From a virus (lineage: Duplodnaviria > Heunggongvirae > Uroviricota > Caudoviricetes), in the IMG/VR virus record IMGVR_UViG_2537561977_000033: a stretch of 45,340 bases of DNA, one strand, 5' to 3'. The notes under the pieces were generated by a model. The model ran no database searches and was not told the origin of the DNA. It saw only the letters and a program-made list of their open reading frames with translations. The position numbers were made by a program, and so were the translations under genes. The number at the start of each line of letters is the position of its first letter. Positions within the stretch are counted from its first letter, which is position 1. Shown here piece by piece: positions 2,304-39,540 of this stretch.

Positions 2304-2591
2304 TATAATAAACTTACTTTTTTATCATTTTTCCACTTTAACAACATTTTGCTCCACTTTTCCACGACCAAACAACTTGAAATCTGGTTAAAATAACACG
2401 CAACACTATTCTTCTTCCTTGAGTCCGCCCGGAACTCGAAAAACAAACCGAGTTAAAGCCATTTTTCACAAAATCGATTTTGGGTTTCACCAAAATTACG
2501 GGGTTGCATACGCATTCGTTTATTTTCGAACGTGTAGGTAATGCTGCCAACTTACTGATTTAGTGTATGATGGTGATTTTAAGGTGCTTGC

Positions 2592-2867
2592 GTGGCTTCC
2601 ATTTCCATCAGATGTCCTTCCTGCTCCGCTACTGAAGGCGTGGTGCGTAACGGCAAAAGCACTGCCGGACATCAGCGCTATCTCTGCTCTCATTGCCGTA
2701 AAACATGGCAACTACAGTTCACTTACACCGCCTCTCAGCCCGGTACGCACCAGAAAATCATTGATATGGCCATGAATGGCGTCGGATGTCGCGCCAGTGC
2801 ACGCATTATGGGCGTTGGCCTCAACACGGTTTTACGTCACTTAAAAAACTCAGGCCGCAGTCGGTAA
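2592..2867 (+). CDS. insA: IS1 InsA, 91 aa
   Basis: [43 protein letters not shown]... matches IS1 InsA from memory. Confidence 0.85.
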
Positions 2868-3289
2868 CCTCGCGCATACAACCGGGCAGTGATGTGATTG
2901 TCTGCGCTGAAATGGACGAACAGTGGGGCTACGTCGGTGCTAAATCACGTCAGCGCTGGCTGTTTTACGCGTATGACAGGATACGGAGGACGGTTGTGGC
3001 GCACGTCTTCGGTGAACGCACTCTGGCCACACTGGAGCGTCTTCTGAGCCTGCTGTCGGCCTTTGAGGTCGTGGTATGGATGACGGATGGCTGGCCGCTG
3101 TATGAATCACGCCTGAAGGGAAAGCTGCACGTTATCAGCAAGCGTTACACTCAGCGCATTGAGCGACATAATCTGAATCTGAGACAACATCTGGCAAGGC
3201 TGGGACGGAAGTCACTGTCGTTCTCAAAATCGGTGGAGCTGCATGACAAGGTCATCGGGCATTATCTGAACATAAAACACTATCAGTAA
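2786..3289 (+). CDS. insB: IS1 InsB reading frame, 167 aa (normally made as InsAB' by frameshifting)
   Basis: [16 protein letters not shown]...[13 protein letters not shown]... matches IS1 InsB; overlaps insA in another frame. Confidence 0.85.
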
Positions 3290-3395
3290 GTTGGAGTCAT
3301 TACCAACGTGTACATACAAATATGCACAAAAATAATCATAATTATTTTCTGAGATGCATTATGATATGAACACCAATTTCGTATAGAGTCTCACT

Positions 3396-8460: not shown

Positions 8461-11400
8461 TCAGCTGATACTGATGCCTGCGGTGGCTTTCTTCATCACC
8501 ACAACCAGCAAATCGCTGATACTTGCTGTGGGATACCAGTCATTTACCAGCCATGCTGACACCGAAAACTCCAGCGTCATGTGGCCGTGACCAGCTGGCA
8601 TATCAATAACACCACTGTAAATCAGCGTATTATCCAGCGCGGTACGGTTATAAATTTCAGCACCATTTTTCTTCACTATCAGGCGGCATGACGAATAAAT
8701 ATCGTTATTCTCCCGCTCATGTTTAGCGCCGCAGAATGCCACCGCTGGAATAACAATTTGCCTGTCAAAAGGCTGATCGTCATAAATCCTGACGGTAATG
8801 GTCCCTGATGGCCACCGCTCCGGTGCCCGGGAGTCCCGCGGGAAAGCCTTACCCACTGTTTTGACAATATCGCCTTCAATCTGATTGGCTGACAGTTTCC
8901 CCTTAATCTGACAGTTCTCATTAATCGTGACGTTGTTGAGCGTCCCGGAGTTCGCGTTCACGTTACCGCTGATATCGGCATTTTTCGCCGTCAGCCGTCC
9001 GCCAGGTGTCAGGGAAAATGCCGGAGGATTACCGCCGCTGGTAATGGTGGGGGCCGTCAGGCGTTTCAGGAACACGTCGTTCATGAATATCTGATCGCCC
9101 TGACCAACAAACATCGGTTTTGTGTTGCCATTCGCAGGATTAACCATCGCAATCCTGTCCGCCGCCAGCAGCACCTGACTCTGCATGCCGTCAGGGGTGT
9201 TCTCAATACCGGCACCAATACCCGCGATATAAAGGCGTCCGTCCTGCATCTGCTGCAGCTTCACAGCCCACATGCTGTTCAGGTTATTATTTGTATCAAC
9301 CTGAACCTTCTGTATCTGCTGAATTGCCGCACTCTGGTCTTCCAGTTTCTTATTGACGGTCTGCGTGATTTCATTGCTGACATCCGTAATGGACGTCCTG
9401 ATTTCAGCCAGGTCAGGCGCAAGCTGACCGTTATCAATCTGCGTCCACAGCTCCTGAGCCAGATGGGTTTTCCCTATCTCGCCTTTGAAAAAATCCAGAT
9501 AGCCGGATGCATCATCACTCGGCTGACCAACAGCCTCCACGAATGCCGATTTGCCAACGGTGTTCACACTGCGAACGTAAAAATAATAATCATGGCCCGG
9601 CCTGATATTGATACTGGCGGCTATCCAGTACAGCGCCGTGCCAAGATAGCGGGCTGTGGTTTCAACCTGCCTGATATCGGTAATCCGCTTTTCCGAGAAC
9701 CAGAACTCAAACTGTACCGTCGGGTCATAAACGGCAAGATGCGGCGTGGCGGTTATCTGAAAATAGCCCGGCGTCAGCTCAATCCGCGACGGCGCTGCCG
9801 GTGCGGCAATCCGGAACGATACCGACGCCGGATCGCCCTGCTGCCCCCACGCATTTACTGCCCGGACTGTCAGCCTGTAGTTCCCCAGCGCCAGTTGTGT
9901 GAAGCGGTAAGTGGTTTCCGTCGTCCGGGCCGTGCTGACCAGCCGCTCACTGCCGTCATCCGCTGTTACGGTCAGACGGAGCAGGAAGCTCACGCCCTTC
10001 ACCACCTTCGGCGTGTCCCAGCGCGCCAGCACCTGATATTCCCCGCTGTCTGCGGTGACTTCGGCAGTCAGGTGCTGCACCGCTGGCGGCGTGACACCAT
10101 TCACCGTGCCGCTCTGGTCGCCGTCAAAGTGCGCCCCGTTATCCACGATGGCCTCTTTTTCCGGTACATGCTGCACGGCGGTGATGGCATACGTGCCGTC
10201 ATCGTTCTCACGGATACTCACGCAGCGGAACAGGCGCTGGCGCAGCGTCGGCAGCTTCAGCCCCCATACGCTGTATCCGGCAACGCCGTCAGGAACACGG
10301 CTCACTTTTACCTTCACGCCGTCGGTGACGGACTGGACCTCCACGCTGACCGGATTGCCTCTTCCGTCAACCAGGCTTATCAGCGTGGTACCGGAGGATG
10401 GCAGCGTGATTTCACGGTCGAGCGTCAGCGTCCGGGTCTGGCTGTTCACCGCCAGCACGCGCCCGCCGGTACTGATACCGGCATAGTCATCATCGCAGAT
10501 TTCAATGACATCGCCCGGTACATGGCGAAGCCCTTCAGCACCCACGCTGAAGTCCACGGTCTGCGTTTCCAGCAGTTCCGTTTTAATCAGCCACAGCCCG
10601 GCGCGGTGTGCCTGCCCCCGGCTGGTACAGCCAAAGGCATCCATCTTCGTGACGTTACGACCGTAACGGGCAATGGCCTGCGTATCTTCAACAAGCTCTG
10701 TCGCCGTCTCCCAGCCGTTGTTCGGGTCAATCCAGTTCACCTCAACGGCATTATGGCGGTCCTTCAGGGCGCTGAAGCTGTAGCGGAACGGCGCGCCATC
10801 ATCCGGCATCACCACATTACTGCGGTTATAGGTCCACGCCTTATCCGACGGTCGGTCCTGCACGAACGTCAGCGTCTGCCCGTTCCATACCGGCATACAG
10901 CGCATCGCCGAGCAGAAATCACTGAGCACATCCCACGCCTTACGCTGTGTGGTCAGGTACGCATTACAGGTGATGCGCGGCTCCGTGCCGCCAAAGCCGT
11001 CCGGCACTGACTGGTCGCAGTACTGGCCGATGACATACAGCGCCCATTTATCCACATCCGTCGCACCAAGACGTTTCCCCATGCCGTAGCGCGGATGGGT
11101 CAGCATATCCCACAGACACCAGGCCATGTTGTTGCTGTATGCCGGTTTAAACGTTCCGTCCCAGATACCGCTGTATTGCCGCGTCTGCGGGTTATAGTTC
11201 GACGGCACCTGCAGAATGCGCCCGCGAAGATGATAATTACGACTCACCTGCTGGCTGCCGAACTGCTCCGAGTCCACCTGCACGCCGACCAGTGCCGTGT
11301 TCGGGTAGCCCTGTTTCACATCGATGATTTCGGTGTATGACGACCAGAGCGTTTTGTTCTGCAGCTGGTCTGTGGTGCTGTCCGGCGTCATCCTGCGCAT

Positions 11401-31452: not shown

Positions 31453-32541
31453 TTACGCCAGTACGCCAATTGCCAGCGCGCGATCGATAAAACGAAATAT
31501 CAGCTCCAGTTGGGAGCCATACTTATCTTCAAATGCCACTGTATCCGTATGCAGCTCGTTGTGATGCTTTCTGCACAAAGGCAACACAAAGAGATCATGT
31601 GCTTTTGTTCCCATTCCGCCCTGCCCGTGACCAATCAGATGATGCGGATCGTCGGCTGGCATACCGCAGCAAGCACACGGCTGTGTCTTAACCCAACGTG
31701 TGTATTTCTCCTTAACCCAGCGGCGACGTTTAGGCAGCTTCATGAAAGATTCCGGAGACTCTGGATCAACGGTGATGCTTACCACCGTCTTTTCCTGTGG
31801 TGATTTTTGTTGCTGGTGGGCGTAAGGCAACGGTGCAAGATTTTTTGTGCGTTGTTTCAATATTCTGGTGGCGGTCTGCTCTCCCGGTACGATGTCGCTT
31901 TCGCGGTACACCGAGCAGATTTTTTCCGCTGGTAATCCCAGCGAACGACGCGATACAGCCTCAGGTAGTGCATCCACCACCTGATTGCAGACCGCCCACC
32001 AGGATAATTCAGCCAAAGATAATTCCCGCTCCTGCGTACCGCTTATTGCGTGACGGATGACGTCAATCACCCATGCTGTCAGATTTTGTTGAGCAAGCAG
32101 CTCCAGTGATTCCGATGTCTGGTCACGCAGTTGGTTGTCGCAGTGCCAGCACAACACCATTGCGCCGGTACCATAACGGTGAATGACTGTTTCAGTGTGA
32201 TGGTAATCGCCATTAGGCCACTGGCAGGATGTAACATGACGTAATAGCCAGTCGGACAATGCGCCAACGCCGCCAGCAGCACGAATCACCCGTTCGTTAC
32301 TAAAAAACGGCAGCAATGTTTTGTCTTCCGCCAGCGGCTGGCGAACGGCAGGAACGACTCCGGATGGCAGATTACGCATGCTTTTTGGTTCCGGTTCCAC
32401 CAGCACTCGAGGATTATGAAATATCTGTATGGATTCACGGCCCGGCTTAAGGACCACCAGCCCAAGCTCAGGCACCAGAACAGGTCTAAGTAATACCCGC
32501 ACGTTACCTCCAGATCCGTTGCTGGAAAGTGCGGGACGCAC
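31453..32541 (-). CDS. ydfU: DUF968-family protein with C-terminal HNH-like Cys/His motif; start uncertain
   Basis: C-terminus ...PCACCGMPADDPHHLIGHGQGGMGTKAHDLFVLPLCRKHHNELH; upstream of Q as ydfU is in K-12 Qin. Confidence 0.55.
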   Translation of the reverse strand: MRPALSSNGSGGNVRVLLRPVLVPELGLVVLKPGRESIQIFHNPRVLVEPEPKSMRNLPSGVVPAVRQPLAEDKTLLPFFSNERVIRAAGGVGALSDWLLRHVTSCQWPNGDYHHTETVIHRYGTGAMVLCWHCDNQLRDQTSESLELLAQQNLTAWVIDVIRHAISGTQERELSLAELSWWAVCNQVVDALPEAVSRRSLGLPAEKICSVYRESDIVPGEQTATRILKQRTKNLAPLPYAHQQQKSPQEKTVVSITVDPESPESFMKLPKRRRWVKEKYTRWVKTQPCACCGMPADDPHHLIGHGQGGMGTKAHDLFVLPLCRKHHNELHTDTVAFEDKYGSQLELIFRFIDRALAIGVLA

Positions 32542-32782
32542 GTGGTGGGCGTTCGGAATAAGGCAGCCTGACAGAGATTATCCAGTGCCGATAGTCGAGA
32601 CTGAGAGCTTTCTTAACCTCGAACCCGCGCCTGCGGTAAGAATGAATCAGCCATTCGGCCTGTTCTGCAGTGCATGGAGGGTGCTGGAACCATTCAGACT
32701 TGAATGCGTGAGAATACCGCCCGTGCGTGCAGGCAAGAACGGGCGAATTATCAGAATTGTAATATTTTGCGTTGCGTGCCAT
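32504..32782 (-). CDS. hypothetical protein, 92 aa
   Basis: ORF only; overlaps the longest possible ydfU start. Confidence 0.3.
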   Translation of the reverse strand: MARNAKYYNSDNSPVLACTHGRYSHAFKSEWFQHPPCTAEQAEWLIHSYRRRGFEVKKALSLDYRHWIISVRLPYSERPPRASRTFQQRIWR

Positions 32783-32848
32783 CGGTTTTCTCCGGTGGCA
32801 CGGTGTTACTCAGCGGGAGTTCAGCCCCGCGCAAGATTGTAGATGAGT

Positions 32849-33100
32849 TTATTCTCCTGAAAAAGCAGAAAAGCCAGCTTTTATTCCGATCTCTTTCAAT
32901 GCCTGTAATGAAGTGACAAACTCACCTTCGCGCAAGATAAATCCGTCCGTGACCCGAGCATCCACAAAATTAATTAACGCAGCCCCATTCTTTCGCAAAC
33001 ACATAATGCGGTAATGACTAACAAGATTTCCATTTTCAACGCACACAGCATAGAGGCCATCTTCACAAAAAATTTTACGCAGTTCTTCGATGTTCATCAT
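32849..33100 (-). CDS. hypothetical protein, 83 aa (possibly Rem by position and length)
   Basis: MMNIEELRKIFCEDGLYAVCVENG...; symbol not assigned because I cannot recall the Rem sequence. Confidence 0.35.
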   Translation of the reverse strand: MMNIEELRKIFCEDGLYAVCVENGNLVSHYRIMCLRKNGAALINFVDARVTDGFILREGEFVTSLQALKEIGIKAGFSAFSGE

Positions 33101-33315
33101 CAGAATCCTTCCGGATAATTAGCTCTCCCCTTTAAGGGACCATCCCTCTTCTCCCTGCGCGCTACTTAAGTATTTTTGATTCTATTCCGGCACCGTCCAG
33201 AACTTCAAACGCGTTGAAAATAAAACAAAAACCCGCCGAAGCGGGTTAAGTGCGGGTGCGTTGAGGATGCCTGCCACATCAGAGGTGGCGAGGGATTTCT
33301 CCCTCGCCGGGTCTC

Positions 33316-33471
33316 TTACTCCTCAGGTTCGTAAGCTGTGAAGACAGCGACCTCCGTCTGGCCGGTTCGGATTCGTACCTCGCAAAGGTCTTTCCTCGTT
33401 ACCAGTGCCGTCACTATGACGGTTAAACAGATGACGATCAGGGCGATTAACATCGCCTTTTGCTGCTTCAT
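33316..33471 (-). CDS. hokD: Hok-family type I toxin, 51 aa
   Basis: Hand translation of the minus strand: MKQQKAMLIALIVICLTVIVTALVTRKDLCEVRIRTGQTEVAVFTAYEPEE; not in the ORF track (short). Confidence 0.8.
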   Translation of the reverse strand: MKQQKAMLIALIVICLTVIVTALVTRKDLCEVRIRTGQTEVAVFTAYEPEE

Positions 33472-33542
33472 AGCCTGCTTCTCCTGTCAACGCAAAGCAG
33501 AAGTGTCACCTTCGGTGCGAAACAGAGATGTCATGCTTTGGT

Positions 33543-33830
33543 TCAGAGAATGCGTTTGACCGCCTCGCTATATACTTCCGAGCGTTCTCTTTTCCCAACA
33601 GAAATCACGAAAACGACAACTTTCTCGTCTATAACCTGGTATACAAGGCGATAGCCTGAAGACCGGAGCTTAATCTTGTAACAATCAGGCATACCACGGA
33701 GCTTGTTTGCTTCAATCCGGGGTGACTCAAGTACTTCAACCAACTTCTTTTTCAACTGTTCACGTACCGTCGAGCCCAGCTTTCGCCATTCCTTTAGTGC
33801 CCGCTCGTCAAAATCCAGAAAATACGCCAT
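33543..33830 (-). CDS. relE: RelE mRNA interferase toxin, 95 aa
   Basis: MAYFLDFDERALKEWRKLGSTVREQLKKKLVEVLESPRIEANKLRGMPDCYKIKLRSSGYRLVYQVIDEKVVVFVISVGKRERSEVY matches RelE. Confidence 0.85.
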   Translation of the reverse strand: MAYFLDFDERALKEWRKLGSTVREQLKKKLVEVLESPRIEANKLRGMPDCYKIKLRSSGYRLVYQVIDEKVVVFVISVGKRERSEVYSEAVKRIL

Positions 33831-34069
33831 CAGAGTTCATCCAGCGTCACACGTACTGGCTTAGGATTACGAAGCCGTTCTTTCACTATCTCCACAAGTT
33901 CAGCATCTTCATCACTCAGGAGTGTCTGTTTGAACGGCAAGCGTTCATTGTCAGCGATATACTCGAGCATGAGACGAAGCGCTTCAGAAGGAGTTACACC
34001 CATTTTTTCAAGCGCGGCGTAAGAACGCGCTTTAAGTTCATCGTCAATACGCAGGTTAATGCTACCCAT
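33830..34069 (-). CDS. relB: RelB antitoxin, 79 aa
   Basis: MGSINLRIDDELKARSYAALEKMGVTPSEALRLMLEYIADNERLPFKQTLLSDEDAELVEIVKERLRNPKPVRVTLDEL matches RelB; stop/start overlap with relE. Confidence 0.85.
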   Translation of the reverse strand: MGSINLRIDDELKARSYAALEKMGVTPSEALRLMLEYIADNERLPFKQTLLSDEDAELVEIVKERLRNPKPVRVTLDEL

Positions 34070-34080
34070 GTCTTACACCT

Positions 34081-34106
34081 CTTGTAATTACAAATGTCAT
34101 TACAAG
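34081..34106 (-). promoter_or_regulatory. relBE operator (relO) palindromic repeats upstream of relB
   Basis: CTTGTAATTACAAATGTCATTACAAG, hexad repeats TTGTAAT/ATTACAA, 12 bp upstream of the relB start. Confidence 0.5.
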
Positions 34107-34399
34107 TATCGCACTACAACATGCTTAGGGCAAGTCACGAAGGAAGTCAGAAAGTAGTCGTAAGAACGGTGATCACTGTCCGCTTTGTGCCAGGAGCAGC
34201 CATTGCTAAGTCCATCCTGTATTGTGCAGATCAGCTCGTTTTTAAAGAGTCCGGCCATCATCTTACTGGTACAGACACCATATACTTTGTGACGGTCAGG
34301 CTACATATGCACAACTCAACTTATTCATCTATTTTTTGCTTTAGCATGTCAGTGTTGCTTTCTCGTCGGCGGGTGAGCGGTGACCTGACCTGTAGATAA
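34094..34399 (+). CDS. hypothetical ORF, 101 aa (YdfV position and size); may be spurious
   Basis: Length and position match my memory of K-12 ydfV; overlaps the relBE promoter region. Confidence 0.25.
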   Translation: MSLQVSHYNMLRASHEGSQKVVVRTVITVRFVPGAAIAKSILYCADQLVFKESGHHLTGTDTIYFVTVRLHMHNSTYSSIFCFSMSVLLSRRRVSGDLTCR

Positions 34400-34601
34400 A
34401 GGAACGTAGCACGTTTTATGCAACACCCGCATGCGGCAGAAAATTATTGCCGAACGTTTACCCCTGTCAACAAGCTTTACTTTCTGAGGCGCGCCAGCCC
34501 GCGAGGAAAACAATCTGAACATCAAACAATTAATGACACAAGAAATACGATTAAAGATTTTTTTGTGCATGCCGATAGTGCTTTTTTAAAAGGAGAAATC
34601 T

Positions 34602-34918
34602 ATGTCTGTCACAATTCAGGGAAATACCTCAACCGTTATTTCAAACAACTCCGCCCCGGAAGGAACATCAGAAATAGCCAAAATCACAAGACAAATTCAG
34701 GTGCTGACTGAAAAGCTTGGGAAAATCTCATCGGAAGAGGGGATGACGACACAGCAGAAAAAGAAATGGCTGCATTGGTACAGAAGCAAATTGAAAGCCT
34801 CAGGGCTCAACTGGAGCAGTTGTTAAGGCAGCAGGCAGAGAAAAAGAATAAAGACGCGACAGTTCAGCCTGATAAAAAGAAGAGAAAAAGACGATACAAA
34901 TACCGCTGGCACCATTGA
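34602..34918 (+). pseudogene. flxA: FlxA-like protein with an apparent -1 frameshift near an A-run
   Basis: Frame 1 MSVTIQGNTSTVISNNSAPEGTSEIAKITRQIQVLTEKLGKISSEEGMTTQQKK then frame 2 MAALVQKQIESLRAQLEQLLRQQAEKKNKDATVQPDKKKRKRRYKYRWHH; junction at CAGAAAAAGAAATGG. Confidence 0.45.
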
Positions 34919-34945
34919 TATTTACGTCTAAGTGACAGCCGTATT

Positions 34946-34968
34946 GTGGCCCTCATCGGGCCACTTTT
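34946..34968 (+). terminator. rho-independent terminator after flxA
   Basis: GTGGCCCTCATCGGGCCAC followed by TTTT. Confidence 0.5.
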
Positions 34969-35129
34969 CGCCATCAGCCTTTTCTTTAAAGACATATTAT
35001 CTTTGTATCATTTCTGATAGTTAACATTACAAGATATAAGTAATGGACGCACTCCCAATTAGTCTATTTAAATCGCCACGAGTTTAACTGACAACCCATG
35101 ATCAATTATGAATTGCAACTATTTCTGTA

Positions 35130-36790
35130 GTCACTTTTGTGGGGACAGTCCACAAAACTGCCAACTTCCGCTTCTTGCTCTTAGCGGACATTAGCATAGG
35201 CTATTTACCATAACGCCTCATTACGCGCACCGCCCAGACTGACTCAGCGCGTTTCTGGCATATCCCCGGTAAAACAAGTAACAACCCCCCCGAAAATGAA
35301 CACCAGAAACGCGACTTAAGAATCTACCCTATGAATGGATATGCACTCAACCGAATCGATCTTGGTTTCAATCTATTTTATCGGGATCAGGCTTCTTTTT
35401 AGGTAACTTCGGGGGCTTAACTTGCTGATGACTTTGCGTTCGGCGCGTAAGCCAGGGATGGTCAGCTTTAGATTTAACATAGTATTTTGAGCGTAAATCA
35501 ATACGGGCATTATCCACTCGTTCATGGACACTCTTTTCATCATCCAGTGGTATAGGCTCCGGGCCATCAACATACTTTTCCCAGCCCAGCGCTTTCCCGT
35601 CATACAGAACGTTAATTTCACCGTCAAAGTTCTCACATACAGTAACAACCGAATGCCTAAGTCGATATCCCCGGCCCTCACTGCGTACCTGAAACGCACT
35701 GCTTTTGTACTGGAAAGTGAGATTTTTAGACAGAACGCGCTTCGCCTGTAGGCTGAAGATATAACCCAGTTCCTCTTCAGAATGGTGCACATCAAGATGA
35801 GCATTATCAGTAGTACGAGGCGACGTAGCGAACCGGTTGTTATAGGCTTCAATAAAGGTCGGCAACCATGCATTTGCTGTTTCAATATCACTGATATTCT
35901 GAAGCCGCATTTCTTTGACCAGCCTGTCCTGTAGTGTCTGATTGGCGCGCTCTACCCGCCCTTTTGCCTGCGGGCTGTTGGCATGGATTGGCTCGATGCC
36001 CAGTGTCTTTATCGCACGAGTGAACTGGGTCAGCTCACCTTCCCGCTCTGGGTTATTTACCCTGAATATACTGTGTCTATCAGAGTAGAGAGCGAGCGGT
36101 ACGCCATGATCATTAAGGTAACCCCGGAGGGTTTCCATGTAAGCCCGGGTTGTTTCAGCAGGCACAAAACGCAACGCCATCAACGCACTGGTGGCATCAT
36201 CAATGAAAACGATCAGTGTACATCTGGGGCCTCGATTTTCAAACCAGTCATGCGGTGAGCCATCAATCTGGATCAGTTCACCGTAAGATGGTCGTCGCAT
36301 GCGGCGTTGATATATACGGGCAATTTTACGACGGCGTTCACGCCATAACCCCTCTTCTATCATCCACTTTCTGAGAGTTTCAACGGATAAAGATAAACCG
36401 TGTATCTCGCGCAATTTTTCGCACGCAAACGTAGGTCCAAAATCAGCGTAACGGCCTTTGAGGAGTGAAATTACTGTTGCTCTGAATTCAGTAGAAAAGG
36501 AATTATTAGGACGCTTTCCACGTCGGTGGGAAACCAGACCAGAAGGCCCTTCATTTCTATACCGTTGCACCAGACGTTTAACCTGCCGAATAGAAATGCC
36601 AATGCGTGCCGCAGCTTGTTCCTGAGTAATATGTCGATTAATTGACTCCTGAATAATCTGAAGTCGGTGGAGTTCCTTATGACTCATCGTAACAGTCTCT
36701 TTGATCATGAAAAATCCCCCAGAGAATTGTCTGGGGACATTTTAGAATGGTTCAAAGGGGACATTACAGCTTGGTGTTAACAATAGCCTG
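35130..36790 (-). mobile_element. insertion sequence carrying an integrase-fold DDE transposase (IS481/ISNCY-like); boundaries approximate
   Basis: Transposase gene 35368-36708; palindromic GGGGACA-containing sequences on both sides (35136-35160; 36711-36770); exact ends and target duplication not resolved. Confidence 0.4.
35368..36708 (-). CDS. DDE transposase with N-terminal HTH and rve integrase core, 446 aa
   Basis: MIKETVTMSHKELHRLQIIQESINRHITQEQAAARIGISIRQVKRL... (HTH), then candidate catalytic D (IQIDGSPHDWF), D (LYSDRHSIF) and E (AKGRVERANQTLQDRL). Confidence 0.8.
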   Translation of the reverse strand: MIKETVTMSHKELHRLQIIQESINRHITQEQAAARIGISIRQVKRLVQRYRNEGPSGLVSHRRGKRPNNSFSTEFRATVISLLKGRYADFGPTFACEKLREIHGLSLSVETLRKWMIEEGLWRERRRKIARIYQRRMRRPSYGELIQIDGSPHDWFENRGPRCTLIVFIDDATSALMALRFVPAETTRAYMETLRGYLNDHGVPLALYSDRHSIFRVNNPEREGELTQFTRAIKTLGIEPIHANSPQAKGRVERANQTLQDRLVKEMRLQNISDIETANAWLPTFIEAYNNRFATSPRTTDNAHLDVHHSEEELGYIFSLQAKRVLSKNLTFQYKSSAFQVRSEGRGYRLRHSVVTVCENFDGEINVLYDGKALGWEKYVDGPEPIPLDDEKSVHERVDNARIDLRSKYYVKSKADHPWLTRRTQSHQQVKPPKLPKKKPDPDKID

Positions 36791-37161
36791 CTTCTCCTTG
36801 CCTTCCGGCACTCGCGACAGATTATGTTTAGACGACTGTCGTAGCGACGTATTTCTCCGTCAGGTAATGACCAGATAAGGTCCGGATCAACCACAGCAGG
36901 TTTCTTCACCTTTGCCCTCGAGAGTTTTTTGCGGGCGTTTTGCCAGTCCTTACGCGCCTGTTCAGACGGGAATAACCCGTAACCAGAGCTGTATACATCG
37001 CCACTGGCAACCAGCTCTCTGGCCAGAACGCTCATCAGATATCTTGTTGCCCCAGTTTTAGCTTCCAGTTGTCGTAACGTCTCGCGCCCACTCTGGCGTA
37101 CGAGTTCCACCACCTGCCCTTTAATTTTTTCCCGCTCTTCTTGTGTAAAAACTTTTGCCAC
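36742..37161 (-). CDS. hypothetical protein of the early-right (replication) operon, 139 aa; 3' end probably altered by the IS
   Basis: Basic, Lys/Arg-rich; reading frame ends within ~40 bp of the transposase start. Confidence 0.3.
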   Translation of the reverse strand: MAKVFTQEEREKIKGQVVELVRQSGRETLRQLEAKTGATRYLMSVLARELVASGDVYSSGYGLFPSEQARKDWQNARKKLSRAKVKKPAVVDPDLIWSLPDGEIRRYDSRLNIICRECRKARRSRLLLTPSCNVPFEPF

Positions 37162-37201
37162 AAGTCCTCCTGAACATTACTTTATACCCTAAAATCAACA
37201 C

Positions 37202-38221
37202 TTATCCCCTGAAACCAGGCGGAATTTCTGTATCCGGTTCAGAAATATGATTCACACAACGCTGTACAGGTGAACGTCCCAGGCGGATGACCAGTTCGTC
37301 CCATTTTTCGCGGAGTTTTGACGGGCTCATGATGTTTTTTACCCAGAATTGATCTCGCTGTACCCGACCAAACATTTCGCAAATTTGTCTGTGGCTTCTG
37401 CCATCCAGCATCCGCATTGTGCGCACGTCATTGGCCCAGGCTGTCCAGTTAGGCTCTTTTGGTCGCATGATCTCTCCATCGTCGCTGGCAGCCTGTTCGT
37501 AAAGGTTCACGATCCGCCCCCAAATCCACTGCGCACACGCCAAATCCTCCCTGCTACCCCACTGGCGTTTTTTCGCACTAAACACAACCGCGTCGGGGTT
37601 CCGGGTTAAAAAATCCTGTTCAGCGGTCTGCGGGTCCGGTTGCGAAGCTTCCGGACGAAAAGTGTTTTTATTCTCTGTAGTAATCTCTGTTGTATTCTCT
37701 GTAAGATCATCAGGCCATTTTGACCCGATGACATTGGGTCGTTTTGAACCAATGGAGCGTTTCATTTTGACCTCTTCCATCGTGTCATTTTGACCTGATG
37801 GAGCGGCGCATTTTAAACCGATGGATTCGCTCAATTTGCCACCATCTAAAAGCTCGCTCCCGTAGTTGATCGTGTAGAAATTGGTCATATCGCGCTTTGA
37901 TTTATTGAGCTTTTCACAACGCAAAAGCCCCAGCGTTTTCAGACTTGCAAACGCGCGCTTTAACGTTGACTCTGACCAGAATGGGAACTGTTCCAGCCAT
38001 TGTTCCGTTGTGTTGTAAATCCAGCGAACACCATCACATTCCATGCCGGAATTGGTATCTCTCAACCAGTAATGCAACTGCTGCAACACAATGGCTTCAT
38101 TTAAGCCAATCTTCATCGCAAGCTGTGTGTTTATAACCAGTGGGCGTTCAGCAAAAAGAAGGCTCATAATTCCATCCAGCTTTTTGTTGGTATTGCTGTC
38201 GATACGCAAGTTTGAAAGCAA
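37202..38221 (-). CDS. putative replication initiation / replisome organizer protein, 339 aa
   Basis: Position downstream of cro-like dicC, corresponding to the lambda O/P position; no confident family match by eye. Confidence 0.35.
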   Translation of the reverse strand: MLSNLRIDSNTNKKLDGIMSLLFAERPLVINTQLAMKIGLNEAIVLQQLHYWLRDTNSGMECDGVRWIYNTTEQWLEQFPFWSESTLKRAFASLKTLGLLRCEKLNKSKRDMTNFYTINYGSELLDGGKLSESIGLKCAAPSGQNDTMEEVKMKRSIGSKRPNVIGSKWPDDLTENTTEITTENKNTFRPEASQPDPQTAEQDFLTRNPDAVVFSAKKRQWGSREDLACAQWIWGRIVNLYEQAASDDGEIMRPKEPNWTAWANDVRTMRMLDGRSHRQICEMFGRVQRDQFWVKNIMSPSKLREKWDELVIRLGRSPVQRCVNHISEPDTEIPPGFRG

Positions 38222-38669
38222 TTGCTTTTTCTATAAGTTCGTCAGTTTCACGATCCACTACGGCAGGATCAGCAAAAAGCAGTCCGGACTCCACCACATC
38301 GCCATATTCTTTGTTTAACCCGGCGATCATGTACGTGATGCTTTTTCCGTCACTAATTTCACGATACAACCTGAAATCATTAATCCGAATAGCCTCCATA
38401 ATTGCAGGCACTAGCGCCGTGAACTTTTCACGCTTATCCCTGGTGTCGATAGCCTTCCAGCGTTCGAATATCTTCACTCGATTAACGCCAAGTGCTCGCT
38501 GATCAACCGCGCCACCTTCATCTGTGACACGCTGAACATCGATGTTCGGGCGCTCTTTCAAAGCCCAGAATGCTTCTGTGATTAATATCGTCGCCTGCTC
38601 CTGTGTCATTCCTGGTCGACATATCCAGGCATCCAGAGCCTCACGAGCCTGTTCAGGAGTGATTTTCAT
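38148..38669 (-). CDS. hypothetical early protein, 173 aa (cII/YdaT position)
   Basis: First gene after dicC in the same operon; overlaps the dicC 3' end by 17 bp. Confidence 0.35.
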   Translation of the reverse strand: MKITPEQAREALDAWICRPGMTQEQATILITEAFWALKERPNIDVQRVTDEGGAVDQRALGVNRVKIFERWKAIDTRDKREKFTALVPAIMEAIRINDFRLYREISDGKSITYMIAGLNKEYGDVVESGLLFADPAVVDRETDELIEKAIAFKLAYRQQYQQKAGWNYEPSFC

Positions 38670-38883
38670 TGTTCAACCGCCCCGCCCGCTTCGTCTTACG
38701 ATATTCATCATAAACTTTGGGATCATACTGAAGCTCCCCGCCAGATGCCTCCTGTAGACGCATCGCGCGACCTTCGGGAACTAAATCCCCTTTCCAGCTA
38801 TAAAGCGAAGCCAAACGAATACCTGCTGCTTGTGCAAGTTTTGTTTTTGAACCGAAATACAAAAGAGCGTCAGTTTTAAGCAT
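38653..38883 (-). CDS. dicC: Cro-like repressor DicC, 76 aa
   Basis: MLKTDALLYFGSKTKLAQAAGIRLASLYSWKGDLVPEGRAMRLQEASGGELQYDPKVYDEYRK... matches DicC; divergent from dicA. Confidence 0.8.
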   Translation of the reverse strand: MLKTDALLYFGSKTKLAQAAGIRLASLYSWKGDLVPEGRAMRLQEASGGELQYDPKVYDEYRKTKRAGRLNNENHS

Positions 38884-38900
38884 TTAAAACACCTTTATTG

Positions 38901-38966
38901 TTAGTCATAACTAACAAGATAGATGTTAACAAAAACATAGTCAATACGATTTAGCATTAGCTAACT
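38901..38966. promoter_or_regulatory. dicA/dicC intergenic operators (two TTAG...CTAA palindromes)
   Basis: TTAGTCATAACTAACA (38901-38916) and TTAGCATTAGCTAACT (38951-38966) between the divergent repressor genes. Confidence 0.5.
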
Positions 38967-39374
38967 ATGGAAACAAAAAATTTAACTATCGGCGAACGCA
39001 TCAGGTATCGTCGGAAAAACCTCAAACACACCCAAAGGTCTCTTGCTAAAGCCCTGAAAATCTCCCATGTGTCTGTATCACAATGGGAACGGGGTGATAG
39101 TGAACCTACAGGGAAGAACCTTTTTGCCCTCAGCAAAGTATTGCAATGCTCACCAACATGGATTCTATTTGGCGATGAAGACAAGCAACCAACACCACCT
39201 GTTGAGAAGCCAGTTGCCTTATCCCCCAAAGAACTAGAGCTCCTTGAGCTGTTTAATGCACTGCCAGAATCAGAACAGGATACCCAGCTCGCCGAAATGC
39301 GAGCTCGAGTAAAAAACTTCAATAAACTCTTTGAAGAATTACTAAAAGCCCGTCAGCGGACAAATAAAAGATAA
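38967..39374 (+). CDS. dicA: XRE-family repressor DicA, 135 aa
   Basis: METKNLTIGERIRYRRKNLKHTQRSLAKALKISHVSVSQWERGDSEPTGKNLFALSKVLQCSPTWILFGDED... matches DicA. Confidence 0.9.
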   Translation: METKNLTIGERIRYRRKNLKHTQRSLAKALKISHVSVSQWERGDSEPTGKNLFALSKVLQCSPTWILFGDEDKQPTPPVEKPVALSPKELELLELFNALPESEQDTQLAEMRARVKNFNKLFEELLKARQRTNKR

Positions 39375-39409
39375 CATCATCAATGAGTTATCTTTTACCA
39401 CATCAATTA

Positions 39410-39463
39410 TGTTAGCTATAGCATACAAAATCACTTGACCGATATGTTAGTCATAGCTAATCT
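39410..39463 (+). promoter_or_regulatory. dicB-operon promoter with overlapping DicA operator-like palindromes
   Basis: TTGACC (39435-39440), 17-nt spacer containing TGTTAGTCATAGC, TAATCT (39458-39463); second palindrome TTAGCTATAGCATA at 39412-39425. Confidence 0.5.
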
Positions 39464-39540
39464 TGTTTGCATCAACACACCGCACGGTGTTCTCAGCAAA
39501 CAGTTCCGCTACCCCAGCGTTAAGGGGAAATGAGGTCAGC

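Follow-up and report, generated by a model that had tools for sequence, protein, structure and literature searches.

Insertion sequences (ISs) of the IS1202 family fall into subgroups with target-site duplications (TSDs) of 5-6, 15-17 or 27-28 bp. One member, ISEsa1, is listed in ISfinder with a length of 1609 bp, a 15/22 terminal inverted repeat (TIR) and a 439-aa transposase (Table 7 of PMC10132070), and the two papers that define the family give neither a TSD nor a target for it (Siguier et al., bioRxiv 10.1101/2022.12.17.520857; Harmer & Hall 2023, PMC10132070). Here we describe a larger transposon with an ISEsa1-like transposase in IMG/VR virus record IMGVR_UViG_2537561977_000033, a 45,340-nt stretch of DNA (the window) that is a Qin-type lambdoid prophage of Escherichia coli. 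Positions 33485-36782 of the window are one IS1202-family transposable element of 3298 bp, which consists of the transposase gene (tnp) and acquired cargo and is inserted in hokD with a 15-bp TSD. Our confidence in this account is high, and it applies jointly to the extent of the element, its gene order, the hokD insertion and two later deletions, one of ~2 kb in this lineage and one in E. coli K-12.

The element has in common with ISEsa1 and the IS1202 family its transposase family, catalytic signature, TGT...ACA termini and an internal box near position 20, and its TSD length fits the ISTde1-type class (15-17 bp). Whereas ISEsa1 is described as 1609 bp long with no TSD or target preference, this element is 3.3 kb long, carries relBE, a Xer recombination site (xrs) and further cargo, and shows a preference for hok. 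The ISAjo2/ISAba32 subgroup, the dif/pdif "xrs hunters", likewise combines a single transposase with oriented, sequence-directed insertion near a short plasmid-maintenance sequence. Those elements insert 5-6 bp from a XerC arm and make 5-6-bp TSDs; here, in contrast, every copy has its xrs inside the element, 137 bp beyond the end of tnp, the preferred target is hok and the TSDs are 15-16 bp. We rejected a cer-like site as the target, on the model of the ISAjo2 group, since the xrs of the element is internal at a constant position.

Tn7, which reaches attTn7 through TnsD, and Tn5053/Tn402, the "res hunters", use TnsB/MuA-like DDE transposases and have a safe-haven target beside the insertion point; Tn5053 prefers plasmid stability loci, a feature that it shares with the present element. 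Unlike these transposons, the element has no TnsA, TnsC, TnsD or TniQ gene and no resolvase of its own. Lima-Mendez and colleagues reportedly described, in 2020, Tn3-family transposons with toxin-antitoxin (TA) modules next to res. The element resembles them in that a type II TA module and a resolution site are constant parts of the transposition unit. It differs in its transposase family, in having a host-XerCD cer-type site instead of res/TnpR, and in placing the TA genes at its outer end, where they read outward.

The transposase family and the gene itself are already known and annotated. We did not find in the searchable literature the boundaries of the element, its TSD, the constant presence of relBE and the xrs, the preference for hok or a transposon origin of the K-12 relBEF operon.

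Ends of the element and target duplication

The 15-mer ATAGCCTGCTTCTCC occurs only at 33470 and 36783 in the whole window, where its two copies flank the element, and when reverse-complemented it reads GGAGAAGCAGGCTAT(G), the Shine-Dalgarno (SD)-like sequence and start codon of hokD. The element termini are TGT...ACA. Both the left inverted repeat (IRL, TGTTAACACC..TAATGTCCCC) and the right inverted repeat (IRR, TGTCAACGCA..AAGTGTCACC) start with 5'-TGT and carry a second box near position 20, as expected for the IS1202 family. A scan of the whole window, on both strands, with the reverse complement of the right end gives 33485 as the best match at 22/30, with a runner-up at 19. The right boundary ...GGTGTTAACA at 36782 is common to all plasmid copies (99% and 91% identity), and the flanks beyond it differ yet resemble each other. 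Between the window and plasmids pEnt261 and pSTEC2018_166-c, identity is 99.2% over 33467/33481-36810. The TSD length characteristic of the family is found both here (15 bp) and in at least 12 other insertions (14-16 bp). With 3298 bp, relB, relE, flxA, ydfV and an xrs, the element exceeds a simple IS (1.3-2.0 kb, transposase only or at most one passenger open reading frame, ORF).

The IRR is conserved in all relatives and is homologous to the IRR of simple IS relatives. These distant relatives are plain ISs of 1449 bp in Hahella (at least 10 copies) and 1466 bp in a Rhabdochlamydiaceae metagenome-assembled genome (MAG), with homologous ends (TGTTAGCCC.../TGTCAAC...) and TSDs of 15-16 bp. Because they share these ends and duplications, the IRR assignment and the TSD length are valid for the clade.

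An earlier note on this DNA had proposed an element confined to 35100-36800 and flanked by similar GGGGACA-containing sequences, while remarking that no clean inverted ends or duplication could be defined there. That remark was apt, as none bound this span, and we find the larger element that the note had named as telling against its proposal, with its IRR at 33485, its IRL at 36782 and a 15-bp TSD. The GGGGACA motif is present at 35141, 36733 and 36757, but it has no value as an end signature, with four copies in the window against 4.8 expected. The supposed similarity of 35136-35190 to 36760-36800 is at chance level: the best local alignment scores 7 (shuffles, 6.2 +/- 1.3), a score that 35% of the shuffles attain, as do 37% of window pairs drawn at random. 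We give next to no credence to an IS that is bounded by GGGGACA direct repeats at ~35136 and ~36760 and inserted in the replication operon, since beyond the occurrence of the motif at 35141 and 36757 it has to contend with a similarity no better than chance, with motifs that are direct and not inverted, with a left motif that lies in a cargo hairpin absent where elements carry other cargo, and with a DUF977 junction that arose by deletion, not by insertion. Within the 3298-bp element, the copies at 36733 and 36757 are conserved boxes in the true IRL that the transposase probably binds, and the copy at 35141 is the loop of the cargo hairpin (35135-35157) and no element end. The sequence CTTCTCCTTGCC at 36790 is target duplication plus hok-leader stub, and CTTCTTGCTC at 35172 makes up the loop of a hairpin that is conserved beside the XerD arm of the xrs.

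The ISfinder listing could be taken to mean that a compact IS of ~1.6 kb (ISEsa1, 1609 bp, from the IRL to ~35174) lies beside a pre-existing, unrelated relBE/flxA region. Table 7 of PMC10132070 does give this length with a TIR of 15/22, and many plasmid matches start at 35163-35173. However, the definition of Harmer and Hall yielded neither TSD nor target, and no inverted repeat of the IRL is present near 35163, the best candidate being 35255-35297 within the cer accessory sequence. Position 35163 is a module edge, beyond which copies carry differing cargo that always ends in relBE and an IRR with matching TSDs. Although RefSeq calls the protein "ISEsa1 family", it has 446 aa, and we found no IRR near 1609. 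ISEsa2 (IS110 family) is inserted at element position ~1610 in many copies, which probably explains the 1609-bp delimitation. We consider the compact IS highly improbable and retain the 3298-bp element.

Three other candidates were rejected. The possible IRR at 35255-35297 (~28/44 to the inner IRL) lies within cer accessory sequence that is shared with IS-free ColE1-type plasmids, and it has no TSD. A "1648-bp unit" at 35163-36810, suggested by the ends of plasmid BLAST matches, is the conserved tnp-xrs module together with similar hok-leader flanks. Plasmid matches that end at 35326 and look like empty sites are IS26 truncations.

hok leaders as a probable preferred target

The leaders of hok genes are very likely a preferred and oriented target of the element. 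In each of 11 distinct hok alleles that carry it (11/11), the IRL points toward the hok leader and the IRR toward the hok ORF. In those alleles TAGCC lies ~40 bp and AAGGCA ~22 bp from the IRL joint, even where the ATG has a different offset (L020; L numbers are our handles for loci). A further 140 IRL copies from IMG/VR and metagenomes have 43 distinct flanks, ~28 of them hok leaders and ~10 unrelated. Three other hok genes, one on each of three plasmids, have these ends and a perfect 15-16-bp duplication of their own: ATGGCCTTCTTCTCC in pEnt261, CATCGCAGCCCCTCCA in pSTEC2018_166-c and CATGGCTTCTTCTCC in pNDM-CIT. Empty sites reconstructed as flank, one TSD copy and flank match as single uninterrupted pieces, at 100% to a plasmid hok and at 99.8% to hokD of E. 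coli SW071618. SW071618 shows the layout that preceded insertion: DicA, Cro, YdaT, O-like initiator, an intact DUF977 gene, a methyltransferase pseudogene, a hypothetical protein, hokD with its leader, and rem.

Repeated insertion is supported by joints within one allele that lie 1 nt apart, giving 15- versus 16-bp TSDs, and by tandem double insertions at hok (L028 and L223). The relBE-tnp block might instead have entered a hok gene once, in an ancestor, and reached the other loci by homologous recombination between hok sequences, which resemble each other closely enough for this; some flanks are hybrid or rearranged (L010, L027). Against such a spread, each hok allele has its own perfect duplication that matches the local sequence on both sides, with the 1-nt joint shifts; insertions outside hok also show 14-16-bp TSDs (L016, L023, L025, L082); and double insertions at hok are found in tandem. 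We therefore judge recombination to be a very unlikely source of the distribution and prefer repeated transposition into hok leaders.

In L028 (Leclercia, 9529-9600) and L223, two related elements occupy one hok site in the order IRR, short duplication, next IRL. These tandem arrangements suggest that the element has no target immunity. At the L023 target (Kluyvera), which is not a hok gene, TAGCC (-40) and AAAGGCA (-23) are spaced from the joint as they are in hok leaders, and this flank may help to delimit the recognition motif.

Deletions in this lineage and in K-12

Of the hok/sok locus, the window keeps the intact hokD ORF and 19 bp of the mok/sok leader. In Shigella flexneri L024, the same hokD insertion has its leader intact, and the window is ~1.98 kb shorter. 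A later deletion of ~2 kb, between 10-bp microhomologies, took away what else there was of the hok leader together with two small genes and the 3' part of DUF977. Comparison with an intact 133-aa homologue (L006) shows that the last 19 codons of the 139-aa ORF come from the hok stub and the IRL. The transposase abuts replication genes because this microhomology deletion fused the hok-leader stub to DUF977. Thus the earlier note rightly saw that the 3' end of the 139-aa ORF abuts the transposase, but the junction is a product of the deletion and not the insertion site. Similarly, the transposase does physically adjoin the early-right/replication genes, although the actual target of what the note took for an insertion in the replication module was the translation-initiation region of hokD.

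The relBE-hokD/ydfW region of K-12 is a decayed copy of the element. MG1655 keeps the IRR and TSD at hokD (1645288), relBE, ydfV, flxA, the xrs (1647009-1647037) and the last 185 nt of tnp (ydfW). It lacks the IRL and the sequence corresponding to 35553-38389, a 2.8-kb deletion that left ydfW and ydfX. The K-12 Qin relBEF operon (relB-relE-hokD) has the same genes at 99.6% nucleotide identity and the same IRR and TSD at hokD; it differs in that the IRL and most of tnp are gone, so that the transposon is unrecognisable there. What earlier work noted, as cited in PMC6379469, is that relBE integrated into hokD from plasmids (Ramisetty & Santhosh 2016), and PMC5120126 cites Gotfredsen and Gerdes 1998 for the co-transcription of relBEF. 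An unannotated NTP16-like cer-type Xer site with accessory sequence is present at 1647009-1647037 of NC_000913.3 (L240), in Qin between flxA and ydfW.

Gene order, Xer site and cargo

Every complete element has the order IRL, tnp, Xer core with hairpin, variable cargo, relBE promoter region, relB, relE and IRR. In element coordinates, tnp (75-1415) and the Xer core (1552-1580, followed by the conserved hairpin) are constant. In the window, relB and relE read outward into hokD.

On the minus strand the Xer core is GGTGCGCGTAA-TGAGGCG-TTATGGTAAAT, with 11-bp arms at a spacing within the 6-8 bp of cer-type sites. It is identical at 28/29 positions to the functionally characterised NTP16 xrs (sequence from the supplement of PMC11724359), the sole difference being one base of the central region. 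The NTP16 accessory sequence and xrs have 103/159 identities to the element, in an alignment that takes in the 140 bp on the XerC side and has the ARG boxes in register, and ColE1-type small plasmids match 35203-35351 at 73-80%. The ARG box is ~100 bp from the XerC arm; only ~137 bp separate the Xer core from the tnp stop codon, where the accessory sequence of a cer-type site takes up ~200 bp. Judged by these features, the internal Xer site is of the cer type, with putative ArgR-type accessory sequences. Like the NTP16 and ColE1 sites it has two arms, a 7-bp central region and a XerC-side accessory sequence with an ARG box; unlike them, it is within a transposon and is here a single chromosomal copy.

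Such a site could be plasmid DNA that merely travels along and does nothing for the element. Cer-like sites of transposase-free plasmids share 35162-35326 at ~88%, and a single chromosomal copy cannot recombine. If it were a passenger, however, it would not be expected directly after tnp in every complete element, including an 80%-aa relative with a different cer-like core (L025), nor with intact arms and ARG box. We regard a passive origin as unlikely, and favor a site that serves the element or its carrier. A possible second Xer half-site in the right flank/DUF977 ("TTATGTTTAGA") was rejected, since it lacks a XerC arm and uninterrupted DUF977 genes contain the same sequence.

Homology to plasmids begins at 35163-35173. 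The hairpin beyond the XerD arm carries repeated IS110-family (ISEsa2) or IS30-like insertions, at ~1610 in L014, L017 and L020 and at ~1606 in L016 and L029, and looks like a secondary insertion hot spot. In flxA, three separate single-A losses occur in A5/A6 runs relative to E. coli O26:H11 11368. Their pattern is typical of homopolymer sequencing error, which could explain them, with real decay as the alternative.

Relatives in other genomes

A protein-seeded scan with one genome per species yielded 78 loci. Approximately 15 species-representative genomes have elements of 2.6-9.1 kb with 14-16-bp TSDs. Plasmid and chromosome copies in Enterobacteriaceae have the same IRL and IRR with different cargo, most of them at hok and some elsewhere (L016, L023, L025, L082). 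The cargo varies with the carrier: flxA/ydfV in the Qin type, cytochrome b and a CDF transporter in IncHI plasmids, and an ars operon in Scandinavium. LysR-type and other genes are also found, as are nested IS110 (ISEsa2) or IS30-like insertions. The ncr operon beside "1.6-kb copies" (L003, L007, L010) is probably cargo as well. More than 1200 of 5426 complete E. coli genomes contain the element, as do hundreds of IncF/IncHI resistance plasmids; its current labels there are "ISEsa1 family transposase", "ydfW" or pseudogene.

Transposase

The earlier note's assignment of the 446-aa product as an integrase-fold transposase is confirmed, and it is a DDE transposase. The protein scores 465 bits with the NF033594 "ISNCY_2" profile (cut-off 250). 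It has the IS1202 signature of an N-terminal helix-turn-helix (HTH) and D..DD..D..E with Q at E+7 (Siguier et al. 2022/23, bioRxiv 10.1101/2022.12.17.520857), and like others of the family it is a single transposase of 400-500 aa with an extra DD and a Q downstream of the E. Residues D149, D170-D171, D210, E253 and Q260 are invariant across 8 homologues of 42-80% identity. A PDB sequence search with the transposase returned a single marginal match, to a retroviral integrase (E = 0.01).

The translated ORF of O26:H11 11368 is identical to that of the window and has no internal stop. In RefSeq this intact 446-aa gene appears as two entries, "ydfW" for its final codons and a "pseudogene, missing C-terminus" for the remainder (L001 6369-7709; L241 20369-21709). 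In K-12, ydfW is the last 49 codons of the transposase (35368-35517 in the window), and the split is an annotation artefact inherited from that strain.

Surrounding genes

All four ORFs that the earlier note listed are present on the minus strand, those of 446, 139 and 173 aa as in Table 1 and that of 339 aa at 37202-38221. Its placing of the three proteins upstream of the transposase in the replication module holds for the 339-aa protein, an O-like initiator (phrog_391, 5e-93), and fails for the other two: the 173-aa protein is YdaT/CII-like and regulatory, the 139-aa protein is DUF977 (phrog_142, labelled "Ren-like" in PHROGs), and neither is a replication enzyme. The region does not conform to Rac ydaS-ydaT-ydaU-ydaV, with which the note suggested a comparison. 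DicC has a weak P22_Cro/YdaS match and the 173-aa protein matches YdaT_toxin, but Pfam gives nothing for the 339-aa protein, which is thus not DUF1376/YdaU, and a DnaC-like gene is missing. Between the O-like initiator and DUF977 there is no helicase loader (P or DnaC-like). There is a faint similarity between the final 20 residues of the initiator and the C-terminus of DnaT (E = 0.006, well short of the cut-off).

The best nucleotide matches of the region are E. coli O26:H11 11368, O78 and many other strains, at 99.8-99.9%. The RefSeq order in matching strains is hokD, relE, relB, ydfV, flxA, ydfW and "IS1202-like element ISEsa1 family transposase", continuing with DUF977, a hypothetical protein, the YdaT family, Cro/CI (DicC) and DicA. 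Collinearity of the window with the best-matching O78/O26 genomes is lost left of 28035 and in the dicC-dicA intergenic region (38782-39469), and the window has IS1-like sequence (91%) at 2524-3304. An Rfam scan of 32500-39500 gives nothing above threshold, the only sub-threshold matches being isrK and rsmX, downstream of hokD. The isrK match at 33226-33307 on the minus strand, directly downstream of hokD, reaches 25.7 bits against a gathering score of 50; the hok mRNA may have its structured 3' end here.

Table 1. Features of the element and its surroundings, in window coordinates
Feature	Position	Strand	Basis or remark
hokD, target gene, 51 aa	33316..33471	-	ORF list and RefSeq; now downstream of relE and IRR
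Target-site duplication, left copy, ATAGCCTGCTTCTCC	33470..33484		Abuts IRR; reverse complement of hokD SD-like GGAG + ATG
IRR, TGTCAACGCAAAGCAGAAGTGTCACCTTCG	33485..33514	+	22/30 match to IRL; second ATGTCA box ~38 bp in
relE, conserved cargo at IRR end, outward-reading	33543..33830	-	ORF list, annotation, element comparison
relB	33830..34069	-	At least 130 bp of conserved upstream promoter/operator region, to ~34200
ydfV ORF, variable cargo of Qin-type element; putative protein-coding	34094..34399	+	ORF list, annotation
flxA, variable cargo	34602..34934	+	Broken here by three 1-nt deletions in A-runs
Cargo hairpin, TTTTGTGG-GGACAGT-CCACAAAA	35135..35157		Contains left GGGGACA; no element end
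Hairpin TCCGCT-N10-AGCGGA	35167..35188		Conserved across elements, just outside XerD arm; marks tnp-xrs module edge at ~35163
Xer core	35203..35231	-	XerD arm 35203-35213, 7-bp central region 35214-35220, XerC arm 35221-35231
Putative cer-type accessory sequences, XerC side	35232..35351	-	ARG-box-like TGCATATCCATTCA at 35332-35345
Intact 446-aa IS1202-family (ISEsa1-like) DDE transposase	35368..36708	-	Pfam HTH_28/29/32 + rve_3
DUF977 gene (139 aa), truncated at ~codon 120	36742..37161	-	PF06163, 4e-22; native sequence starts at 36802
IRL, reverse complement TGTTAACACCAAGCTGTAATGTCCCCTTTG	36753..36782	-	Two AATGTCCCC boxes; + strand GGGGACATT at 36757 and 36733
Target-site duplication, right copy, ATAGCCTGCTTCTCC	36783..36797		Adjoins IRL
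hokD leader stub, 19 bp, sole mok/sok remnant in this lineage	36783..36801		Leader intact in S. flexneri L024 and empty-site E. coli L091
Deletion junction, microhomology CTTCCGGCAC (10 bp)	36802..36811		Two BLAST segments overlap here
O-like replication initiator	37202..38167	-	321 aa from RefSeq start; ORF of 339 aa from TTG at 38221
YdaT-family/CII-like protein, 173 aa, regulatory	38148..38669	-	PF06254, 1e-5; phrog_163, 2e-40

Proposed mechanism and significance

In the mechanism that we propose, the DDE transposase would bind the paired ATGTC(C/A)CC boxes in each end and cleave at the TGT/ACA termini, with target cuts 15-16 bp apart. The choice of target would be oriented and directed by sequence, the hok-leader motif (TAGCC ~40 bp and AAGGCA ~22 bp from the IRL joint) positioning the insertion. 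At hokD, insertion split the hok ORF from its leader and placed hok directly downstream of relBE, which may stabilise the element and its replicon and drive hok as a third operon gene. At the cer-type site, host XerCD, ArgR and PepA could resolve either transposition cointegrates or multimers of a carrier plasmid. Neither role is more likely than not on its own, and we hold the two to be roughly equally likely. TnsB-like enzymes lacking TnsA transpose replicatively, and a role in cointegrate resolution requires replicative transposition. The complete scheme, in which the hok leader is recognised, insertion occurs in one orientation at the ribosome-binding site (RBS)/ATG, Hok becomes the third relBE gene, and the cer site with XerCD, ArgR and PepA acts on cointegrates instead of a resolvase, is tentative, and we consider it rather doubtful that all of its parts hold.

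Several points weigh against parts of this interpretation. The ~10 insertion contexts that are not hok make the preference strong and not absolute, and many of the surveyed copies share descent, which brings the independent hok insertions (at least 10 hok alleles) below the raw counts. The TAGCC/AAGGCA motif could reflect mere conservation of hok leaders and not be read by the transposase. ISfinder lists ISEsa1 as 1609 bp, and the cointegrate role depends on the replicative transposition just mentioned. Exchange of cargo is not obviously Xer-mediated, because the edge of the conserved tnp-xrs module is ~40 bp past the XerD arm and not in the Xer core. Activity of the transposase is predicted, from its intact ORF, the ends of the element and the polymorphic insertions.

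If our account is correct, then the ISfinder entry ISEsa1 would be a truncated description of this element, and the anatomy of a very widespread element is corrected in a way that accounts for the target duplication missing from ISEsa1. In E. coli K-12, flxA, ydfW and the classical operon relB-relE-hokD (relBEF) would all derive from a transposon, of which they are the remains. Other members of the IS1202 family hunt Xer sites, and hok loci would be a new class of target for it. The element would also be a DDE transposon in which a host-Xer resolution site and a toxin-antitoxin pair are never missing. Together these two suggest a "plasmid-maintenance cassette" that stabilises itself and also mobilises metal-resistance genes (ars, CDF and probably ncr).

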